Below, in pieces: positions 2,263 to 21,856 of a DNA stretch of 64,000 nt; the stretch's first letter is position 1; every line of letters begins with the position of its first letter. Location: assembly GCA_000004985.1 (NCBI GenBank), contig GG738848.1; one strand, given 5' to 3'. The DNA is from Naegleria gruberi (lineage: Eukaryota). Made by a program: the position numbers and the translations under genes. The notes below the pieces were generated by a model. The model did not search any database and was not told the DNA's origin. It was given only the letters and a program-made list of their open reading frames with translations.

Positions 2263-3195
2263 ATGTCCTTCATCATTAAACCAACCCGTATCTTGTCAAA
2301 CTCTTTGAGATCAAAGAAGATTTGCTCTCCTCTTTTCCAACAACAACAAATCATCACTAGACAACAATACAATTTTTCATCATGTCTTCGTTCTATGCAA
2401 CAACAAATCACTTATCCAACCAATCTTGAAAATATTCTCTTTGAAAAGAAGGATTCCGGAGTTGCCATCATCACTTTGAACAGACCAAAAGCTTTGAATG
2501 CATTGTGTAAACAACTTGTTCAAGAATTGGGACAAGTTGTCTCCTTGTGCGAAAAGGATCCATCTGTTAGAGTAATGATCATTACAGGAAGTCAAAAGGC
2601 TTTTGCTGCTGGAGCTGACATTAAGGAAATGAGCACCATGACTGCTATGCAAGTTTATAATGAAAATTTATTTGGAGAACTTGATGCTGTTTCTAAAGCT
2701 AGAAAGCCAGTTATTGCTGCTGTTAATGGATTTGCTTTGGGTGGTGGATGTGAACTTGCCATGATGTGTGACTTTATTGTTGCTGGTGAAAATGCCAAGT
2801 TTGGTCAACCAGAAATTAAGCTTGGTACTATTCCAGGTATTGGTGGTACTCAAAGACTTACTAAAGCTATTGGTAAGGCAAAGGCTATGGAATGGAATTT
2901 GACTGGAGATCTCCATGATGCTGTTGAAGCTGAAAAGGCTGGTTTAGTTTCTCGTATTGTCAAGACTGAACAACTCCTTGAAGAAACTCTCAAGATTGCT
3001 GAAAAGATTGCTTCATACAGTCAACCTATTGCTGCATTGGCTAAGGAATGTGTTAATAAGGCTCATGAAACTGGTTTGCAAGAAGGTTTAGTTTTCGAAA
3101 GAAGAGTTTTCATGTCCACTTTTGCTTCAAAGGATCAAAAGGAAGGTATGAGTGCTTTTGCTGAAAAGAGAACTCCAAAGTTTGTTGATGAATAA
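2263..3195 (+). CDS. Enoyl-CoA hydratase (crotonase family, mitochondrial ECHS1-like)
   Basis: Core motifs ITLNRPKALNAL, AFAAGADIKEM, NGFALGGGCELAMMCD and KFGQPEIKLGTIPGIGGTQRL are present. The S/Q-rich N-terminus is consistent with a mitochondrial presequence. A-rich context before the ATG. Confidence 0.9.
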   Translation: MSFIIKPTRILSNSLRSKKICSPLFQQQQIITRQQYNFSSCLRSMQQQITYPTNLENILFEKKDSGVAIITLNRPKALNALCKQLVQELGQVVSLCEKDPSVRVMIITGSQKAFAAGADIKEMSTMTAMQVYNENLFGELDAVSKARKPVIAAVNGFALGGGCELAMMCDFIVAGENAKFGQPEIKLGTIPGIGGTQRLTKAIGKAKAMEWNLTGDLHDAVEAEKAGLVSRIVKTEQLLEETLKIAEKIASYSQPIAALAKECVNKAHETGLQEGLVFERRVFMSTFASKDQKEGMSAFAEKRTPKFVDE

Positions 3196-10307: not shown

Positions 10308-11519
10308 TTACATTTTCATATTTCGCTTAAATTTTCTATGAATTTTCACCAATTCTTCGCATAGACAGGCTTCCATTTCTCTGAATAAATCAAATCTCAA
10401 GAGTTGAGTTGATTCCTGCTCATGGAGTAAATAATTTTCTTGAATTTCTTTGCAAATGGAAGCAATCAAGCTCTTGCTGACATACTTGTATGGTTGTTTC
10501 TTAATGGAATCTTTTAGATAGTTTCGATAAATGGAAAGTGCTTGCTCTCTTTTAGCTTCATCATTTTGTAAAGTGTTAAATGTGATAATTTCTTGTAAAA
10601 GTGCAAAAACATGTTCAACATTTTGAACTTTGCATGCTTGTTTGAAATATTTGGACAGGTTTGGATTCCTAATTGTATCCAACATTTGCATAGTTTTGGA
10701 ATTGTTCAATGTTTCGGATACAACAGATTCTCTCTTTAGATTAATGAGTGTCATTCCCAAAACAATTGGAAGGACAATTGCCAAGCAAGCACCAACAACT
10801 GCAAGGTTAGTAGTTGAGGCATCATAGACCTTATCATCCTTTCCTCTTCCTTCATTCTTAATAGTACCAAAGAATGAACCTTGTTGTTTCGACCAGTTTC
10901 CAATAGCATTCTGATAAATTTGACCCTTGTACAAATCCTTAGCACGCGCATAATTGCCATTCTCTAACTCTTTTATAATCTCTTCCATCAATGGTAATGT
11001 ATACATATCACTTCCATTCTTACTTGCATGATTGAAATTTGTGGAATTTGTGGTTGACTCAATATTTGCAAAGATTCTATTGAGAGCTTCGACCATTTGA
11101 TCCCTGTAGACGTACCACAGCTTGGTTTCTTCATTACTTCCTGATAGTGCGCCTACTCTCACAATATCCAACAAGAGCTCACCAGTATTGAGCGCGTCAC
11201 CTCTTGCAATTAATGTTCTGACAGCTGGCTGATTGGAAATTTGAAACATGTTGATTGTTATACCGGCAACAATAATAAAAGCAGCAACATTGATCAACAA
11301 ACTAACAATTGAAAACAATCTCAAACAATCCAACTCTAAAATGCCACAACAAATTTTGACTTTGACGTTTAAAGTAGAGATGGTTGTCTTGGAGAAACGA
11401 GATGTTCTAGAGGTTTTCGAGTTGGTTCTGGATATTATGGATTTAGTTTCAGCTATTGTTGGTACAGAATTTGAAGTTGCGTCAAGAATTGCAACTTTTT
11501 TGAGTTGTTTGTTTTCCAT
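10308..11519 (-). CDS. Two-TM membrane protein with extracellular LIARGD domain and C-terminal RGS-like domain (paralog A)
   Basis: TM1 IVSLLINVAAFIIVAGITINMF, then about 160 aa starting ..LIARGDALNTG.., then TM2 LAVVGACLAIVLPIVLGMTLINL. The C-terminal YFKQACKVQNVEHVFALLQEIITF...ALSIYRNYL...FDLFREMEACL follows the RGS-box pattern. ATG 11519 is preferred over the GTG at 11591. Confidence 0.5.
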   Translation of the reverse strand: MENKQLKKVAILDATSNSVPTIAETKSIISRTNSKTSRTSRFSKTTISTLNVKVKICCGILELDCLRLFSIVSLLINVAAFIIVAGITINMFQISNQPAVRTLIARGDALNTGELLLDIVRVGALSGSNEETKLWYVYRDQMVEALNRIFANIESTTNSTNFNHASKNGSDMYTLPLMEEIIKELENGNYARAKDLYKGQIYQNAIGNWSKQQGSFFGTIKNEGRGKDDKVYDASTTNLAVVGACLAIVLPIVLGMTLINLKRESVVSETLNNSKTMQMLDTIRNPNLSKYFKQACKVQNVEHVFALLQEIITFNTLQNDEAKREQALSIYRNYLKDSIKKQPYKYVSKSLIASICKEIQENYLLHEQESTQLLRFDLFREMEACLCEELVKIHRKFKRNMKM

Positions 11520-11964
11520 TTGAGTTTTGACTTTTTTTTTTTGATTATACAGAGATTGAACAGTTGATATCAGATTTCTTCTGTTTGACACCTATTGAAA
11601 TGTTTGATAAGAATGGATTGTTTCAGAAGCTAGTTTCTCAAAGATAAGACAGTTGACTTGACTTGACAAGAAATTCGCAAATGTTCATTCCCTTCGAACA
11701 AATGAAAGTTATGAAACATAGAAGAGTCCCCACCATTTAATACACGCATGCCATTTGAACATCATCATTGGTTCCCTTGTTACAACAATTTTCAAACCAT
11801 ACCTTCTATATTTAGTAACAAGTAATGAAATCAAAAAAAAAGAGACGTTAGATTTAATATTTTTATTGTTTAGTAGGTTCCAATTTTGAGTTTGGTTCAT
11901 AGGGGGAAGGAGGCATCAAAGATAATCAAATGGCGATATTGAAAAAACAAACAGAAAAAAAAAG

Positions 11965-13431
11965 ATGACACTTGGTGCTGAAGAGACAATAGACGAAAGA
12001 TTGGACGAAAGTCCACCACAAGAAGAGTTCAACTCGGTGCAGATGCAGGAAATACAGATACAGGAAAATGCATGCAAGAAAGTGGTGACACTGATGGAAG
12101 AACATGATGGTCATGTTGTAGTGTTCAAGAGAGATTCGTCTGAAGAAGAGGATAACGATTCGTCTACTGATGTAGATTCTAATATTGCCATCGATGAATT
12201 TGAGATTGAATTACCAGATATCAGAGACGTTACTAGTTTGACATCTGCCACACCAATTTCAGCCAAAAGTCCAGTTGGAAATCCAGATCTGCCACTTGTC
12301 AGTTCACAATCTCAACAACCTAACAAGAAAAAATTCAAGATCAAATGCAATGCCTTTCGTTTGATCACATTAGCCAGTTTACTTTTCAACATTGTTGCAT
12401 TCCTTGCCCTCATTGGCCTCACAATCAATACCTATCTCAGTTCGAATAATACTTCAGTTGAGATTCTAATAGCTCGTGGTGATACGAATTATTATAATAC
12501 GGTACTTTGGGACACTGCCAAGTTGGCAGTCTTGACAAATGACAGTTCCACAACCAGTCGTTACACAACCAATGCCAAGAATTTTAGAAATTCATTGAAA
12601 AATATCCTTAATGGACTTCCGTCTGGTTTCCAATGGAAAATTTTGGATGGAACGAATGCGACCTCAAAAGCTCCAATGTTTCCTTATTATGACAGATTAT
12701 TCAATTTGACAACTGCCAAGAAATGGACAGAAGCAAGACAACTCTATTTTTCAACTGATTATCAGTCAACCTTAACACAATGGAATATTGATTATCAACA
12801 ATTTCATGAATCCATTACAAAAGTAGGTCAAGGATTAGATGACTATGTATTTGCCTCAAGTATTGCCAATTTGGTGATTATTGGTATTTCTTTGGCTATT
12901 GTTGTGCCAGTAATTGTCTTTGTTTTCGTATTGATGGTTAGAAAGGATGGAATGGCTAAGAGTTCATTGCAATCACTCAATTCTGAAATGATTTTAGAAA
13001 CGATGAGAAATGAACAGATGAGAGAAGATTTTAAGAATCATTGTATGGCAAGTAATATGTATGAATATTACTCTATATTGGAAAAGATGGTTATTTATTC
13101 TGAAATTTGTGGTCAAATTGCAGAGTTGACTAAACATGGTAAAGCCAGTGAACAAGTTCAGTTGTTGGAAAAGACAAAGATTGAAATTGCTTTTGAAATC
13201 ATTGCTGATGTCCAAGAAAGTAATAGCTCAGTACTCGATGAAAATACACGAAACTACATTAGTTCAACCGTTGATGAAGTGAATAATTCACTGAATGAGA
13301 GAGAAGATCTTGAGCAGAATAATCTTTCACCAACTCTATTCCACGACTTGGAAAAGGAAATCCAAGATCAACTTCTTTATGTACACTATGTCTTTAAACA
13401 CCAAAACACAAAAGTAATAAACACAGTGTAA
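11965..13431 (+). CDS. Two-TM membrane protein with extracellular LIARGD domain and C-terminal RGS-like domain (paralog B)
   Basis: Same architecture as the 10308..11519 gene: TM1 LITLASLLFNIVAFLALIGLTINTY, ..VEILIARGDTNYY.., TM2 LVIIGISLAIVVPVIVFVFVLMV, C-terminal EDFKNHCMASNMYEYYSILEKMV.... Transcribed divergently from a shared 445-bp region. Confidence 0.5.
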   Translation: MTLGAEETIDERLDESPPQEEFNSVQMQEIQIQENACKKVVTLMEEHDGHVVVFKRDSSEEEDNDSSTDVDSNIAIDEFEIELPDIRDVTSLTSATPISAKSPVGNPDLPLVSSQSQQPNKKKFKIKCNAFRLITLASLLFNIVAFLALIGLTINTYLSSNNTSVEILIARGDTNYYNTVLWDTAKLAVLTNDSSTTSRYTTNAKNFRNSLKNILNGLPSGFQWKILDGTNATSKAPMFPYYDRLFNLTTAKKWTEARQLYFSTDYQSTLTQWNIDYQQFHESITKVGQGLDDYVFASSIANLVIIGISLAIVVPVIVFVFVLMVRKDGMAKSSLQSLNSEMILETMRNEQMREDFKNHCMASNMYEYYSILEKMVIYSEICGQIAELTKHGKASEQVQLLEKTKIEIAFEIIADVQESNSSVLDENTRNYISSTVDEVNNSLNEREDLEQNNLSPTLFHDLEKEIQDQLLYVHYVFKHQNTKVINTV

Positions 13432-13696: not shown

Positions 13697-15469
13697 TCAT
13701 TCATTGCAAGAGTAATAATATCTGGAAATACTGAAGGTACCTAATGATGCTACATTATCATGGGAATCATAAAACTCTTTGATAGACCTGTGATCGGCAG
13801 CTTGAATGTCACCATTAGGTCTTGGGTCTGTATTTGTTTCAACCACCACATATTTCAATGTTTTTGATACTTGACTCAATCTAGATGTGAATTCAGTCAT
13901 ATTTAACCATCCATTTGTGTGTCTTGAATTGTAATCAAATACAATATCAATATTATACAGCTGTTTGAGAAAATCTATTTGATGAAATAGATATTCATTT
14001 TCATGAAATCCTGATAAGACCAGATATTTCAAGTTAGGCATAACTTTGCATGATAACATGGATTCTAAAATTGTTCTACTGGTTTTTCCTATTTTCATTA
14101 CTGATTCATTATCTCTATACCCATCATCATCTTCAACAACGATTCTCAAATATTTCACTCCTGGAAATGTACATCCATTGAAAAATGAACCCCACCTATT
14201 CTGAGGATGCTTACTGTATGCGCTTAAATTATTATATTCAATGGAAAGAAATCTGATATTTGAAGGGAATTCGAAATCTTTCAAAGGATCCAAATAAAGA
14301 AGATTGATTAAACTTAGGCATATTGATCCTAACAATCTTTCCTTCAATTCGTTTAGGTTAACAGTTTCGTCTATCTCCTTATTAGTTGATTCCTTTTCTT
14401 CATCAATTTGCAAATTTGTCTCAACGTTGTCTCCATTGGAAACTTGAGTAAAGTCTTCATTTTTCAGTAATAGTAATAGAGGTGAGGCCAAAAGAGAGTA
14501 AACGTTCCAATAGGAAAGTAAGGCAATTGTCAAAAGGCCGGCATACATTATTCCATCATTGCTTTGAATATTTCTTGATAGTTCTTTGGGATGCATTCCT
14601 GTGAATGGCATTTGTTTTTCAATATTCTTTACAAAATATTCCCAACCAATAGATGATTCAATTCTAATTCCAAGACTTTTTCCGCTCTGTTTCCTTCCAA
14701 TAACTACACTTTTAACCCTTGATGAGAATGACTTGATAGGCCAGTTCTCGACATGGTTTTCAGAAAGTAGGAAATTCTCTCCAACAGACCAATAGTCAGA
14801 CAAAGATTCTGTATGCATGTATTTGTACATTTCAAGTGAGAGCATTAGTGACTGTGTGAGAAACATTTCAAAAGCATGCTCCTTATTTTTGTAATATAGC
14901 TCATAATCCTCAAATGAAATGTTAAATCTATTCAATCTTGATTGAATCATCTCCTTACAAGCATCCTCATCACAATAATCATTCATATGCAATGGATCTG
15001 TAATAATACTGCTTATTGTATCAAAATCCAGTTTTTGACTTGTTTTTCCTCTCTCAATAGCTCCAATCATTACCTCAAGTCGAAGAGCTTCATCCATCTC
15101 AGTGGTATTCAAATCTCCTTGGCACAAATCCAAAGAATCAAAAGAGTTTGTTCTAATCCAGTACATGATTTTCTGATGAAAAACAAATCCTTTCAACCAA
15201 AACCTCTCAAAAGCCTCATCTCCATTCCCCACTATCATTTCCCTCAACCTTCTCGTAATGGATCCGAATCGGATCACTGATTTAATATTTTCAAAAGGTG
15301 GTATGTAATTTTCTACCTGACTAACCAATCTCATATCCACCCTATCATCATGTAACCTATCGAGATCACCAACCAGATACGAAATAATCTCCAAAATAAG
15401 TTCCTTCGGTATTGATTGAAAATTGTAAGTCGAATAATCTCTTTCTAAATATCTTTGATTTGATATCAT
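13697..15469 (-). CDS. F-box-like hypothetical protein
   Basis: N-terminal IPKELILEIISYLVGDLDRL is F-box-like. Long C-terminal region with LRR-like periodicity. ATG 15469 is preferred; the track ORF extends to 15523. Confidence 0.45.
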   Translation of the reverse strand: MISNQRYLERDYSTYNFQSIPKELILEIISYLVGDLDRLHDDRVDMRLVSQVENYIPPFENIKSVIRFGSITRRLREMIVGNGDEAFERFWLKGFVFHQKIMYWIRTNSFDSLDLCQGDLNTTEMDEALRLEVMIGAIERGKTSQKLDFDTISSIITDPLHMNDYCDEDACKEMIQSRLNRFNISFEDYELYYKNKEHAFEMFLTQSLMLSLEMYKYMHTESLSDYWSVGENFLLSENHVENWPIKSFSSRVKSVVIGRKQSGKSLGIRIESSIGWEYFVKNIEKQMPFTGMHPKELSRNIQSNDGIMYAGLLTIALLSYWNVYSLLASPLLLLLKNEDFTQVSNGDNVETNLQIDEEKESTNKEIDETVNLNELKERLLGSICLSLINLLYLDPLKDFEFPSNIRFLSIEYNNLSAYSKHPQNRWGSFFNGCTFPGVKYLRIVVEDDDGYRDNESVMKIGKTSRTILESMLSCKVMPNLKYLVLSGFHENEYLFHQIDFLKQLYNIDIVFDYNSRHTNGWLNMTEFTSRLSQVSKTLKYVVVETNTDPRPNGDIQAADHRSIKEFYDSHDNVASLGTFSISRYYYSCNE

Positions 15470-15620
15470 TTTTTTGAAATATTTAATTTTCTTTTTTTTT
15501 GTAAATATCAAAATTGCACACAAATCTCAAATATTGTTAAAACTCATTGAGTCAATTCTTCATCCCGATTTTTATAATCAATTATCGGGATTGAATGCTA
15601 ATCAGGTTCCAAAAAGAAAA

Positions 15621-17318: not shown

Positions 17319-18803
17319 TTACAGTTTGAAAATCTTATTGACATTTTCCCTTGTCTTGGTGAGATAGAAATCTGGATCTTTTGGACTATAGTCAAGGTAG
17401 GCAGATGCAATATTATCAAATTGGTCAGAGTTTGGATTATTAACGGTTATTGGGATGGCTGGCTCTATTTGGGTACCTTCATGCCATTCATTATAGGATG
17501 TTATGGTAATGTATTGAGGGAAATGCTTTAGATTGAGAACAGCATCAAACATTCTTTGATAATATTGACCATTCTCTCTTCCTTTGGTGTTTTGCTTGTT
17601 CCATGGTCTAATCTTTTCATCTATATAACCAGGTGCTATTGAGGGTATGAATAACAAGTTATTATTATGAGCCCATTCACTAATTTCCTGCCACTTTGAG
17701 CATGTAGACCCTTCTGTGAATTGATCTGCAGCGAAGTATGTATAAAACCCATCCATAAACGAATTCTTAATATTATCCCTCATTCCTGAATTTAAATATA
17801 GTCCAATAATTATAGAATCGTACTTTGTGTTTCTGATGGTGTCCTTTCCATTTGGTGATAGAATAGTTTTCCACTCTTCTGCTGATAAAATGTATGAATC
17901 ATACATATAAAATAATGGTTTTCCATTATGTCTAAAGAATGCCTTTGAATTTCCATACTTATCAATGACATATTTGATATCTCTCTTGACACTGGCAGCA
18001 TTTCTTCCTTTGTAAGGTTCCATATGGAAAATAACCTGCAATCCAGCTTCCTCAGCACATTCCATAAAGAATGGTGTTATCAATTCAGTATTGCTTCCAT
18101 TCTCATCAGCTTCTGAAACGCCCCACCAGCTCAATACTATAACATGCACATTGGCCTTATTTTTAATTTCCAAAAATTGTTCCATCACCACATCCTTATC
18201 AGTGGAAGAATATGCTCCTCTACTTGGATAGAAATTAGTTGCCAATTGTTTCAGTTTAGGATCATGTTCCTTTCCAACAAGATGTTTATATTGTTCATTT
18301 GTACTTGCAGTCCAGTGAGGTAAAACTTTGTGATTCCAATGTTCATACTTTTTATCATGTTTCTCATTCTTATACCATGCATAGTAAAAGATGTGAGCAA
18401 AGGGATGAAAATTATTTCCTCCACTATTTGATTGTGTTACATTGGATGGTAAAGTTTTATCGGATGATGAATTTTCTTCCAATTGATTATTATTATTGTC
18501 AATATTACTACGTCCTGAATTTAATTTCATATTATTATTGTTCTGATGATGATTATCCAAATTACTCGTTAATGATTCAATAATTTCCTTTGCAGAGTGA
18601 TGACGAAGAGAAACCAACGAATGTTGATACAATGAAAAGATTAAAAACAAGAGAAATCCAGCCAAGACTGTATACCACAGAAATCTTCTCTTACCAAAAA
18701 ACAAACTCGGAATGAATGTACTTCTTCCCTTGGATGATGATGAAGATGTTGTAGAATAAGAAGGGGCAATAGGAGAATCAAAGGCGACTTCTTCAATGCC
18801 CAT
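17319..18803 (-). CDS. Glycoprotein endo-alpha-1,2-mannosidase (GH99), type II membrane protein
   Basis: HIFYYAWYKNEKHDKKYEHWNHKVLPHW, VIVLSWWG, FHMEPY and ITSYNEWHEGTQIEP are diagnostic of GH99. N-terminal signal-anchor FLWYTVLAGFLLFLIFSLY. ATG 18803; the track ORF starts at an upstream TTG. Confidence 0.75.
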   Translation of the reverse strand: MGIEEVAFDSPIAPSYSTTSSSSSKGRSTFIPSLFFGKRRFLWYTVLAGFLLFLIFSLYQHSLVSLRHHSAKEIIESLTSNLDNHHQNNNNMKLNSGRSNIDNNNNQLEENSSSDKTLPSNVTQSNSGGNNFHPFAHIFYYAWYKNEKHDKKYEHWNHKVLPHWTASTNEQYKHLVGKEHDPKLKQLATNFYPSRGAYSSTDKDVVMEQFLEIKNKANVHVIVLSWWGVSEADENGSNTELITPFFMECAEEAGLQVIFHMEPYKGRNAASVKRDIKYVIDKYGNSKAFFRHNGKPLFYMYDSYILSAEEWKTILSPNGKDTIRNTKYDSIIIGLYLNSGMRDNIKNSFMDGFYTYFAADQFTEGSTCSKWQEISEWAHNNNLLFIPSIAPGYIDEKIRPWNKQNTKGRENGQYYQRMFDAVLNLKHFPQYITITSYNEWHEGTQIEPAIPITVNNPNSDQFDNIASAYLDYSPKDPDFYLTKTRENVNKIFKL

Positions 18804-19113
18804 AGAATTAAATTGTTGCAATTTTTTGATCTGATTTCAAGTCCTTCTCCTCCGAAGAAACACGTGTTCGTTGATAAAGAGTTGAATAATTCTTCTTGCA
18901 CGATAATGTGCCTATTCACTAGGGAAGAAGCAACATTTTCTTATTGAGAAAATTTGATGTTGAAAAGTGTGGCGCCTTAATTTTACTTCTTAAAAAAAAT
19001 ACAAATTCTTCATCATACCACTCGTTCTTAAGAGTTACTCCCGAGAGCAGTTGCTGTTGTTTTTAAAGATTTGATCAACAAATTTTGTACTTTAAATTGT
19101 ATAATAGAGAGAA

Positions 19114-20041: not shown

Positions 20042-21856
20042 ATGTCAAGACAACTAGTTGAACTTCCCACCGATATTCTTTCCAATATTTTTGTATTTCT
20101 CTGTGATGATCAAGGTGAAAATAATTTAAATTCCATATTTGCACTCCTCCGAACATGTAAAACATTTCGATATGTGATAAGGAATGATAATTATCAATTG
20201 TGGGGATTTTTCACGTTCAATTTTCCGTTTTTCAATAGAAAAATTGTGGATGGAAGATGGATGAGAAAAGTCAGTGATGAGCCACTTGAAGAGGTTAGCT
20301 TGATGATTTATGAAAAGTTTATGAAATTTGTAGAGTTGCTTTGTGGAGATTCGAAAATGGTTGGACGATTGGATGTCACATTGTTTGGCAAGGAAGATTG
20401 TGGATGGTTGGTGAGGAGTATTGAGAGGGATTTTGTAAATTTAAAAACGTTAACAGTGAAAACGAATATCGAAAAAATTATTCAACATGATTTGAGATTT
20501 CCATATTTGCAAGAATTGATATTGCAATGTCGGTGGCCATTGTTAATTTCAAATCATGAATCAACTTTGAGAAGAATAGAAATTTATTATAGTGAAAGTA
20601 TTTCTAGATTGTGTGAAATTTGCAATTTTCCTAAATTACAATCAATTAAGGCTCCTTGTCGTAATCGATTGAAATCAGGAGATTGTGATCCAATTCTTGA
20701 AAAATTGGAATACTACACTGCAAGTTCCATAGATCTGCTTCCTAAACTTGTAGCAGCCAAGAAATTCTCCATTTCTTGTGATTGCCTCATTCTGAAACAA
20801 AATGAACTGATCAAAAACTTGACAATATTGAATATTGAATGTGAAGTAACGGAACTATGTAATATTAATTTTCAAAATTTGAAATATTTTAGCTTCATTG
20901 TGAAGAAGTTTTCAATTGAAAATGTTAAATTTCCAAAATTAACTAATCTTGATGTAAAATTGGATGACTATGAGAAATTATTTGAAATTATACCGTGTCA
21001 TCAGATTTGTGACCTTTCATTTGATGGAAATTCAGCCAAGGTCATTCATCTCAAAGAAGATAAGTGGAAGTCATTGAGGAATATTCAACTTATGTATGTT
21101 CTAGATGGCAGCTCAATTGAGTTTAGTAGCTTGCATTTTGTAACCACAAGTGGAAGTAACGTTATATTTAGAGGTACTAAGAAATCACCTCTCCTCATTG
21201 ACGCTCTATTTGTAACTTCAATTGATGAAATAATTATTGAAGAGAAGGGAGAGTTACTACAAGTTAATTATTTAGTATTAGACTATTCCTATCATTTATA
21301 CACATTGAGAGACAAAATTTCAAAGATTGACGATCTATATATTAGCTATGGGTATTATTACACGGTTAACTCGGACTTCATGGCCATAGACATGATTAGC
21401 ATGTATTCACTCTGTCCTGATATTCGTACAGGCGGAAAGAAATTGAGAAATATGAATATTGAACTGTCTTGCAATTTCACAATTTCACTACATGGATTGC
21501 ACATCCCATATGAACCTACCTATCCTCTGTTGTCGACCCTTACACTGTTGGAGCTCACTGGATGCCTTATTGAGGAATTGGATTTATCTTTATTACCAAA
21601 ACTAGAAAATTTTTCTATTAGCGATTCCACTTTAAATAATTTTATAATAGCAAAATCAGAGAATTGTCATGAATCTCTAAAATATTGCTACATTTACAAG
21701 TTGAATAATATAAGAATCAAATTGCATTTAAACGCTCCTAATTTAAAGGTGTTTATAGTTTGTGATTGTGCGAATTTGAATTCTGATAATTGTGAAATTG
21801 AGTTGGTAAACTCTCCATGTTTAAGCCTGTCCTGTTTACCCAAATTTCTTCTTTAG
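20042..21856 (+). CDS. F-box-like hypothetical protein
   Basis: LPTDILSNIFVFLCDD...LLRTCKTFRYVI is F-box-like. 604 aa, single exon. A8 directly before the ATG. Confidence 0.5.
   Translation: MSRQLVELPTDILSNIFVFLCDDQGENNLNSIFALLRTCKTFRYVIRNDNYQLWGFFTFNFPFFNRKIVDGRWMRKVSDEPLEEVSLMIYEKFMKFVELLCGDSKMVGRLDVTLFGKEDCGWLVRSIERDFVNLKTLTVKTNIEKIIQHDLRFPYLQELILQCRWPLLISNHESTLRRIEIYYSESISRLCEICNFPKLQSIKAPCRNRLKSGDCDPILEKLEYYTASSIDLLPKLVAAKKFSISCDCLILKQNELIKNLTILNIECEVTELCNINFQNLKYFSFIVKKFSIENVKFPKLTNLDVKLDDYEKLFEIIPCHQICDLSFDGNSAKVIHLKEDKWKSLRNIQLMYVLDGSSIEFSSLHFVTTSGSNVIFRGTKKSPLLIDALFVTSIDEIIIEEKGELLQVNYLVLDYSYHLYTLRDKISKIDDLYISYGYYYTVNSDFMAIDMISMYSLCPDIRTGGKKLRNMNIELSCNFTISLHGLHIPYEPTYPLLSTLTLLELTGCLIEELDLSLLPKLENFSISDSTLNNFIIAKSENCHESLKYCYIYKLNNIRIKLHLNAPNLKVFIVCDCANLNSDNCEIELVNSPCLSLSCLPKFLL

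Follow-up and report, generated by a model that had tools for sequence, protein, structure and literature searches.

RGS domains (for regulator of G protein signaling) are fused to at least one transmembrane (TM) segment in most eukaryotic lineages (PMC3971589), and RGS proteins with seven TM segments (7TM-RGS) have been described in plants, Trichomonas, and Naegleria (PMC9283941). In these organisms some G-alpha subunits load GTP spontaneously, so that membrane RGS proteins, not G protein-coupled receptors, are the likely entry point of outside signals (PMC9283941). Naegleria fowleri is reported to have self-activating G-alpha subunits, 28 7TM-RGS GTPase-activating proteins (GAPs), and 79 further RGS proteins that have been listed without further description (PMC9283941). 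Here we analyzed a head-to-head pair of genes in a stretch of 64,000 nucleotides (the window) from Naegleria gruberi contig GG738848.1 (assembly GCA_000004985.1). Gene A (open reading frame [ORF] 10308..11519, minus strand, 403 amino acids [aa] plus stop) and gene B (ORF 11965..13431, plus strand, 488 aa plus stop) encode proteins 100% identical to NAEGRDRAFT_78141 (P0001) and NAEGRDRAFT_78142 (P0004), respectively, both of which already carry the automatic UniRef name "RGS domain-containing protein." The first-pass annotation of this DNA had assumed a dictyostelid genome; that origin is ruled out by the identity of both proteins to N. gruberi entries, and the lineage is Heterolobosea. To our knowledge, 7TM-RGS proteins are the only receptors that have so far been considered for the G-alpha entry point.

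The explanation that fits best, and in which we have moderate confidence, is that Heterolobosea possess receptors in which a prokaryotic-type two-TM sensor is joined to an RGS domain and that A and B form a degenerate, likely noncanonical pair of such receptors that was duplicated as a unit. A two-TM prokaryotic-type sensor combined with RGS is apparently an undescribed variant of the receptor-type RGS proteins. The architecture had been put forward as unrecognized at first pass, which goes too far for the fusion of RGS to TM segments, already a known class (PMC9283941, PMC3971589). Full-text searches returned no paper joining a four-helix-bundle or chemoreceptor-type sensor to RGS, a prior mention in Anantharaman et al. 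2011 still being possible. The present proteins resemble 7TM-RGS proteins (AtRGS1 and those of Trichomonas and N. fowleri) in combining a receptor-like membrane N-terminal part with a C-terminal RGS domain, here predicted to be cytosolic, in residing in a host with self-activating G-alpha, where a GAP and not a guanine nucleotide exchange factor is the plausible regulated step (PMC9283941), and in that canonical members of the family keep all G-alpha contacts. They differ in having two TM segments instead of seven, with a prokaryotic-type four-helix bundle in place of the heptahelical bundle, and in the degenerate contact residues of A and B. With a second large class of receptors, heterotrimeric G proteins would gain a wider sensory input in a lineage that includes the brain-eating N. 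fowleri. The predicted parts of the two proteins and the region between their genes are as follows.

10311..10682, minus strand: A, RGS-fold tail with degenerate G-alpha contacts (residues 280-403)
10737..10811, minus strand: A, TM2 (residues 237-261; Kyte-Doolittle mean 2.65)
10812..11243, minus strand: A, ectodomain, four-helix-bundle sensor (residues 93-236)
11244..11324, minus strand: A, TM1 (residues 66-92; maximum 19-residue Kyte-Doolittle mean 2.63; modeled as helix 61-95)
11325..11519, minus strand: A, disordered cytosolic N terminus rich in S, T, K, and R (residues 1-65)
11520..11964, no strand: shared divergent intergenic region, putative bidirectional promoter (445 bp from ATG to ATG)
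11965..12354, plus strand: B, long, acidic, S-rich, disordered cytosolic N terminus (residues 1-130)
12355..12438, plus strand: B, TM1 (residues 131-158; Kyte-Doolittle mean 2.43)
12439..12861, plus strand: B, ectodomain, four-helix-bundle sensor (residues 159-299; from Foldseek, the bacteria-only profile, and glycosylation sequons)
12862..12939, plus strand: B, TM2 (residues 300-325; Kyte-Doolittle mean 3.17)
12994..13428, plus strand: B, degenerate RGS-fold tail (residues 344-488)

Membrane topology and the sensor domain

Among 1.84 billion representative proteins, a profile built on A, B, and three close relatives matched 95 clusters (50% identity) at E ≤ 1e-3, including 74 at E ≤ 1e-10, and most of the matches ran from TM1 to the C terminus. 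All named members are heterolobosean (N. gruberi, N. fowleri, N. lovaniensis, Willaertia magna, and Heterolobosea sp. BB2), and the remaining ones are metagenomic or transcriptomic sequences. No orthologs of A or B with more than ~50% identity were found in N. fowleri or N. lovaniensis.

Kyte-Doolittle analysis gave two strong hydrophobic segments, and no others, in each of A and B (19-residue means of 2.4 to 3.2). The flank ahead of TM1 is rich in K and R and free of acidic residues in both proteins; the 15 aa preceding TM1 contain 3 to 4 K/R and zero acidic residues in A and 5 K/R and zero acidic residues in B. AlphaFold2 models (mean predicted local distance difference test [pLDDT] of 70.7 for A [m4f1ce2f27245] and 64.2 for B [m6767ce9233cc]) contain two TM helices each and leave the N termini disordered (pLDDT < 50 for residues 1-63 of A and for residues 1-25 and 36-130 of B). 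Ecto-helix 4, TM2, and the cytosolic linker are modeled as a single helix in A (residues 200-284) and as a continuous helix through TM2 in B (residues 264-348); P251 of A TM2 is near-invariant across the family. Over 74 family members, the ectodomains contain 2.51 N-x-S/T sequons per 100 aa, 1.92 times what their composition would lead one to expect, and the parts predicted to be cytosolic contain 1.28 per 100 aa (1.07 times the expectation); the sequons of the B ectodomain are at N161/N162, N192, N231, and N247. This excess of sequons in the inter-TM domain and the positive-inside rule together predict a lumenal or extracellular inter-TM domain and a cytosolic RGS tail. From hydrophobicity, K/R flanks, and sequon distribution we thus infer a cytosolic N terminus, two TM segments, an outward-facing ectodomain, and a cytosolic tail, the topology that the first-pass annotation had proposed. 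The N terminus of A closes with the juxtamembrane motif K-I-C-C-G-I-L-E-L, with CCG (residues 57-59) at 11343..11351. The consensus of this CC motif ahead of TM1, TCCGxxEL, is found in 37 of 74 family members and is a candidate dual palmitoylation site; it is lost in B, whose N terminus closes with NKKKFKIKC.

The most interesting feature of these proteins, a bacterial-type four-helix-bundle sensor, had gone unrecognized at first pass. The ectodomain measures 141 to 144 aa (about 142), shorter than the earlier figure of about 160 aa. In the predicted models the ~140 aa between TM1 and TM2 form an all-alpha antiparallel four-helix bundle, which in A is modeled confidently (pLDDT > 90). Foldseek matched the B ectodomain to the MCP2201 ligand-binding domain (LBD) (probability 0.99; TMt, 0.56 to 0.61) and also to the Vc1313 LBD, Tsr, and NarQ.

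Sequence profiles point the same way. The full-length family profile also matched three prokaryotic proteins, a Desulfobacterales methyl-accepting chemotaxis protein (MCP), a histidine kinase, and a STAS protein. When these three proteins and the TM segments were left out, so that the profile comprised the ectodomains of eukaryotic members only, it still matched the prokaryotic periplasmic regions end to end (MCP, 57.5 bits; histidine kinase, 61.0 bits; STAS, 64.8 bits), with E values of 1e-10 to 7e-13 for a library of 1.8e9 proteins and a maximum of 11.2 bits among shuffled controls (n = 600). The hits of the reverse, bacteria-only profile, built from 80 prokaryotic sensor domains, included N. 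lovaniensis P0046 (C9374_006401; 47.9 bits), W. magna P0008 (32 bits), and residues 166-284 of B (25.4 bits). On these profile scores, the ectodomain is a homolog of the sensor domains found in bona fide prokaryotic signal transducers.

Several results weigh against this assignment. Taken alone, A does not reach significance against the bacteria-only sensor profile. Pfam 4HB_MCP_1 (PF12729) gave weak matches in 4 of 40 eukaryotic ectodomains at E ≤ 1 (best E = 0.023) and none in A or B, and a sequence-profile search of the PDB with the ectodomain alignment gave nothing significant. The models were built from a 5-sequence alignment and have predicted template modeling scores of 0.34 to 0.39, and the E values of the Foldseek matches are 0.3 to 1.

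Three proteins with the order sensor-TM2-RGS, P0091 and P0083 from Logan/JGI and P0096 (Heterolobosea sp. BB2), have ectodomains that lie far closer to the bacterial profile (77.6 bits for P0091 and 48.3 bits for P0083). Their RGS motifs look nearer to those of classical RGS domains ("EHSEENITCW"). These three proteins may be early-branching forms of the fusion or may belong to other protist lineages.

In prokaryotes, 132 relatives of the sensor were confirmed in species-representative genomes of Planctomycetota, Verrucomicrobiota, Cyanobacteria, Chloroflexota, Desulfobacterota, and other phyla. There the domain is periplasmic, comprises ~130 aa with the motif "G.I..yDEvLTmSARmAa.TGd..W..RY...ld.AI.E" (match at ~2501-2900 in loci L001-L080), and precedes STAS, PAS-HisKA-HATPase-REC, GAF-kinase, SpoIIE, and MCP outputs. 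Such variety of outputs (STAS, histidine kinase, SpoIIE, and MCP) is the mark of a sensor module with promiscuous use. No Pfam-A family matches the bacterial sensor regions, which points to a widespread prokaryotic sensor domain that lacks a Pfam model. Compared with the described bacterial four-helix-bundle sensors (Tar/Tsr, MCP2201, Vc1313, NarX/NarQ, and HK9), whose 4HB_MCP_1 model matches weakly, the heterolobosean proteins have a eukaryotic RGS-fold output and no HAMP domain, and sequons for N-glycosylation are enriched in their ectodomains. Eukaryotic reuse of a prokaryotic extracytoplasmic sensor domain has other examples, such as CHASE in the cytokinin receptors of plants. In both cases a bacterial-type extracellular sensor appears grafted onto the signaling machinery of a eukaryote; the output of the CHASE receptors is a bacterial-type histidine kinase, whereas here it is a eukaryote-specific regulator of heterotrimeric G proteins. 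The heterolobosean family is a clear example of a prokaryotic sensor domain joined to a signaling module specific to eukaryotes.

The ectodomains had been described as opening with a shared LIARGD motif. The motif is present in both proteins, at residues 103-108 of A (11196..11213, minus strand) and residues 168-173 of B (12466..12483, plus strand), and is invariant in the five closest sequences only; in the wider family, R, G, and D are each found in ~40 to 46% of members. An adhesion or integrin-type role of the RGD tripeptide is unsupported, as the RGD is membrane proximal at the start of ecto-helix 1, is only ~40% conserved, and aligns with "RG" or "SG" in the bacterial homologs.

The RGS-fold tail and its G-alpha contacts

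The nature of the C-terminal tails emerges from family profiles and structure comparison. Pfam RGS (PF00615) matches 44 of 77 family members (E ≤ 0.01; best E = 7.8e-12). Against a profile built from 33 canonical family tails only, B reaches 58.1 bits and A 35.8 bits. The family consensus aligns with RGS10 and RGS3 at the hallmark motifs "F..fl..E.SeEN" and "eVN(l/v)." In Foldseek, the A tail was recovered as RGS (probability 1.0; TMt, 0.6 to 0.72), and the B tail matched the RGS domain of SNX13 (probability 0.99; TMt, 0.58). By these predictions both tails are all-helical and have the RGS fold. The RGS-like tails of the first-pass annotation therefore stand as a fold, which structure prediction gives for both proteins, but not at the level of the Pfam search that had been proposed alongside it: the A tail scores 20.7 bits, under the cut-off of 23.9, and B has no match at E ≤ 10, which counts against the RGS assignment. 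A PDB search with the tail alignment likewise gave only weak matches to RGS10 and RGS3 (E values of 0.06 to 0.2). Canonical members carry a Ser/Lys-rich insert of 30 to 60 residues between the two halves of the RGS domain (alignment columns ~55 to 115), which is absent in the A type and short in the B type. Because this long insert divides the domain, the PDB matches are weak and HMMER splits and underscores the RGS match.

In RGS4, the residues that contact G-alpha-i1 (PDB 1AGR) are E83, S85, E87, N88, N128, D163, and R167. Their equivalents in five divergent tails were read from local alignments and are, in this order, Q, V, H, V, Y, K, and K in A and S, M, E, Y, N or V, Y, and V in B; the closest paralogs (P0002, NAEGRDRAFT_57301, and NAEGRDRAFT_79971) are as degenerate as A and B. 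Across the family, 32 to 33 of 74 members keep all of N88, N128, D163, and R167 and 27 lack N88, N128, and D163 altogether, so that the contact residues are mostly retained or lost jointly. With these residues replaced, a canonical G-alpha interface is unlikely in A and B, and a canonical GAP role is doubtful. The lineage-specific receptor-like GAP suggested at first pass thus holds up as a lineage-restricted family, with Heterolobosea as the lineage, and becomes questionable as a GAP for G-alpha. On the other side, two alignments give N and one gives V as the N128 equivalent of B, which may be a retained Asn, and the loss of GAP activity is read here from residue identity alone, while some RGS domains tolerate substitutions.

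These observations bear on the alternative that A and B are active receptor-type GAPs, in which an ectodomain ligand switches a canonical RGS GAP activity on G-alpha, as proposed for 7TM-RGS proteins. Both tails have the RGS fold and belong to a family related to canonical RGS domains, and Naegleria G-alpha is regulated by membrane RGS GAPs (PMC9283941). At single positions, B keeps E87 besides the possible Asn, and the Lys of A at R167 is a conservative change. We nevertheless consider active GAPs doubtful, given V, Y, and K at N88, N128, and D163 of A and Y, Y, and V at N88, D163, and R167 of B. The largely all-or-none distribution of contacts in the family (32/74 versus 27/74) is as expected under relaxed selection on the G-alpha interface of the degenerate members, and the nearest folds include RGS-homology domains of SNX25, SNX13, and axin that are not GAPs.

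That SNX25 and SNX13 are among the best structural neighbors of the A and B tails, together with the degenerate contacts, speaks for another alternative, namely, that the two proteins are structural or trafficking components of endomembranes, similar to two-TM SNX13/14/25, with a lumenal helical domain and an RGS-homology domain serving as scaffold or tether. We regard this as improbable. No PXA, PX, or PXC (nexin-C) domain was found in A or B at E ≤ 10, nor any other Pfam domain, and the TM segments of SNX13/14/25 make up a short hairpin at the N terminus, without an intervening 140-aa sensor. The prokaryotic homologs of the ectodomain always precede signaling outputs, and close relatives of A and B keep a fully canonical RGS domain. 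More broadly, A and B share with RGS-homology domains that lack canonical GAP activity (axin, SNX13/14/25, GRK2, and the rgRGS of RhoGEF) the RGS fold, the replaced contact asparagines, and proximity in structure searches; those proteins lack a two-TM four-helix-bundle sensor, and their PX/PXA, kinase, DH-PH, and DIX domains are absent in A and B.

Under the favored explanation, that of a prokaryotic-type sensor joined to RGS, the N-terminal module would follow the plan of bacterial chemoreceptors and sensor kinases (cytosolic N terminus, TM1, four-helix bundle of ~142 aa, and TM2), and a single uninterrupted helix, lacking HAMP or any other adaptor, would link TM2 to the cytosolic RGS-fold domain. 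Binding of a ligand or surface cue to the bundle, probably in a dimer as in bacterial four-helix-bundle sensors, would displace ecto-helix 4 and TM2, which would reposition the RGS-fold domain relative to membrane-anchored G-alpha. In the ~40% of the family with all canonical contacts, the outcome would be ligand-controlled GAP activity toward Naegleria's self-activating G-alpha. A and B would represent two distinct divergent N. gruberi subfamilies in which most contacts are replaced and would more likely be RGS-homology domains than canonical GAPs; their tails may bind G-alpha yet not speed up hydrolysis, may have a different binding partner, or may modulate relatives of the canonical kind. 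Directly testable predictions follow from the division of the family into canonical and degenerate members and from the conserved A/B pair.

Head-to-head pairs and their origin

A and B align by BLASTP over 273 aa (E = 5e-27; 25% identity), from TM1 through the ectodomain and TM2 into the beginning of the tail, and their start codons are separated by a single region of 445 bp (11520..11964); the paralogy and the divergent transcription noted at first pass were thus borne out. Both ORFs are intact and full length, and tblastn of the window revealed no third copy of either gene. A second pair was found on contig L081 (ENA metagenome ERZ929261 k127_381635, positions 1-2471), where an A-type gene (P0002; 53% identical to A) lies head-to-head with a B-type gene at a distance of 295 bp. 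The latter is 99% identical to NAEGRDRAFT_79971, which is 54% identical to B. Each subfamily has a second intact copy at 50 to 56% identity, in which the domain plan and 43 invariant positions are kept. Our searches returned no N. gruberi NCBI protein that corresponds to P0002; this gene may be unannotated in or missing from the reference assembly, or L081 may come from a closely related strain.

A neighbor-joining tree of 72 members gave 100% bootstrap support to the A-type clade and likewise to the B-type clade, and the five sequences together were monophyletic in only 1 of 100 replicates. As the A and B types are not sisters and a second A/B pair exists, the pair was duplicated as a unit, and a recent tandem duplication is rejected as its origin. 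Duplication as a unit in turn argues for functional coupling, that is, for coexpression and possibly heterodimerization; A and B are probably coexpressed, and an A:B heterodimer is possible. Alignment of the 445-bp and 295-bp spacers gave no convincing shared motif or conservation, which does not favor such coupling.

A bolder proposal is that A and B form an obligate heterodimeric chemoreceptor-like sensor, expressed from the shared bidirectional promoter, with a sensor acquired from bacteria and with degenerate RGS-homology tails that no longer switch G-alpha off but act as ligand-gated binders of GTP-bound G-alpha or as effector scaffolds. We judge this unlikely as a whole; if true, it would be a previously unknown coupling of a bacterial-style receptor to eukaryotic heterotrimeric G proteins. 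The opposite extreme, that A and B are decaying duplicates, nonfunctional remnants of a large lineage-specific expansion that are adjacent by chance, would be in keeping with the large size and fast evolution of the family, the degenerate RGS motifs, and the failure to find an ortholog above ~50% identity in N. fowleri or N. lovaniensis. It is nonetheless very improbable, as both ORFs are intact, the second copies preserve the domain plan with its invariant positions, the head-to-head pairing of nonsister subfamilies is preserved in the second copy, and the ectodomain is confidently predicted.

Spacer sequence and neighboring genes

Homopolymer runs of A or T lie immediately 5' of both ATGs (11520..11560 and 11945..11964) and likewise beside both start codons of the L081 pair. 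These runs may be a general 5' feature of N. gruberi genes and not a specific element. The following other genes of the window are unrelated to the A/B pair.

2263..3195, plus strand: enoyl-CoA hydratase (E = 6e-82)
13697..15523, minus strand: 608-aa ORF adjoining gene B, without a Pfam match
17319..18821, minus strand: GH99 endo-alpha-mannosidase-like protein (E = 5e-116)
20042..21856, plus strand: F-box-like protein

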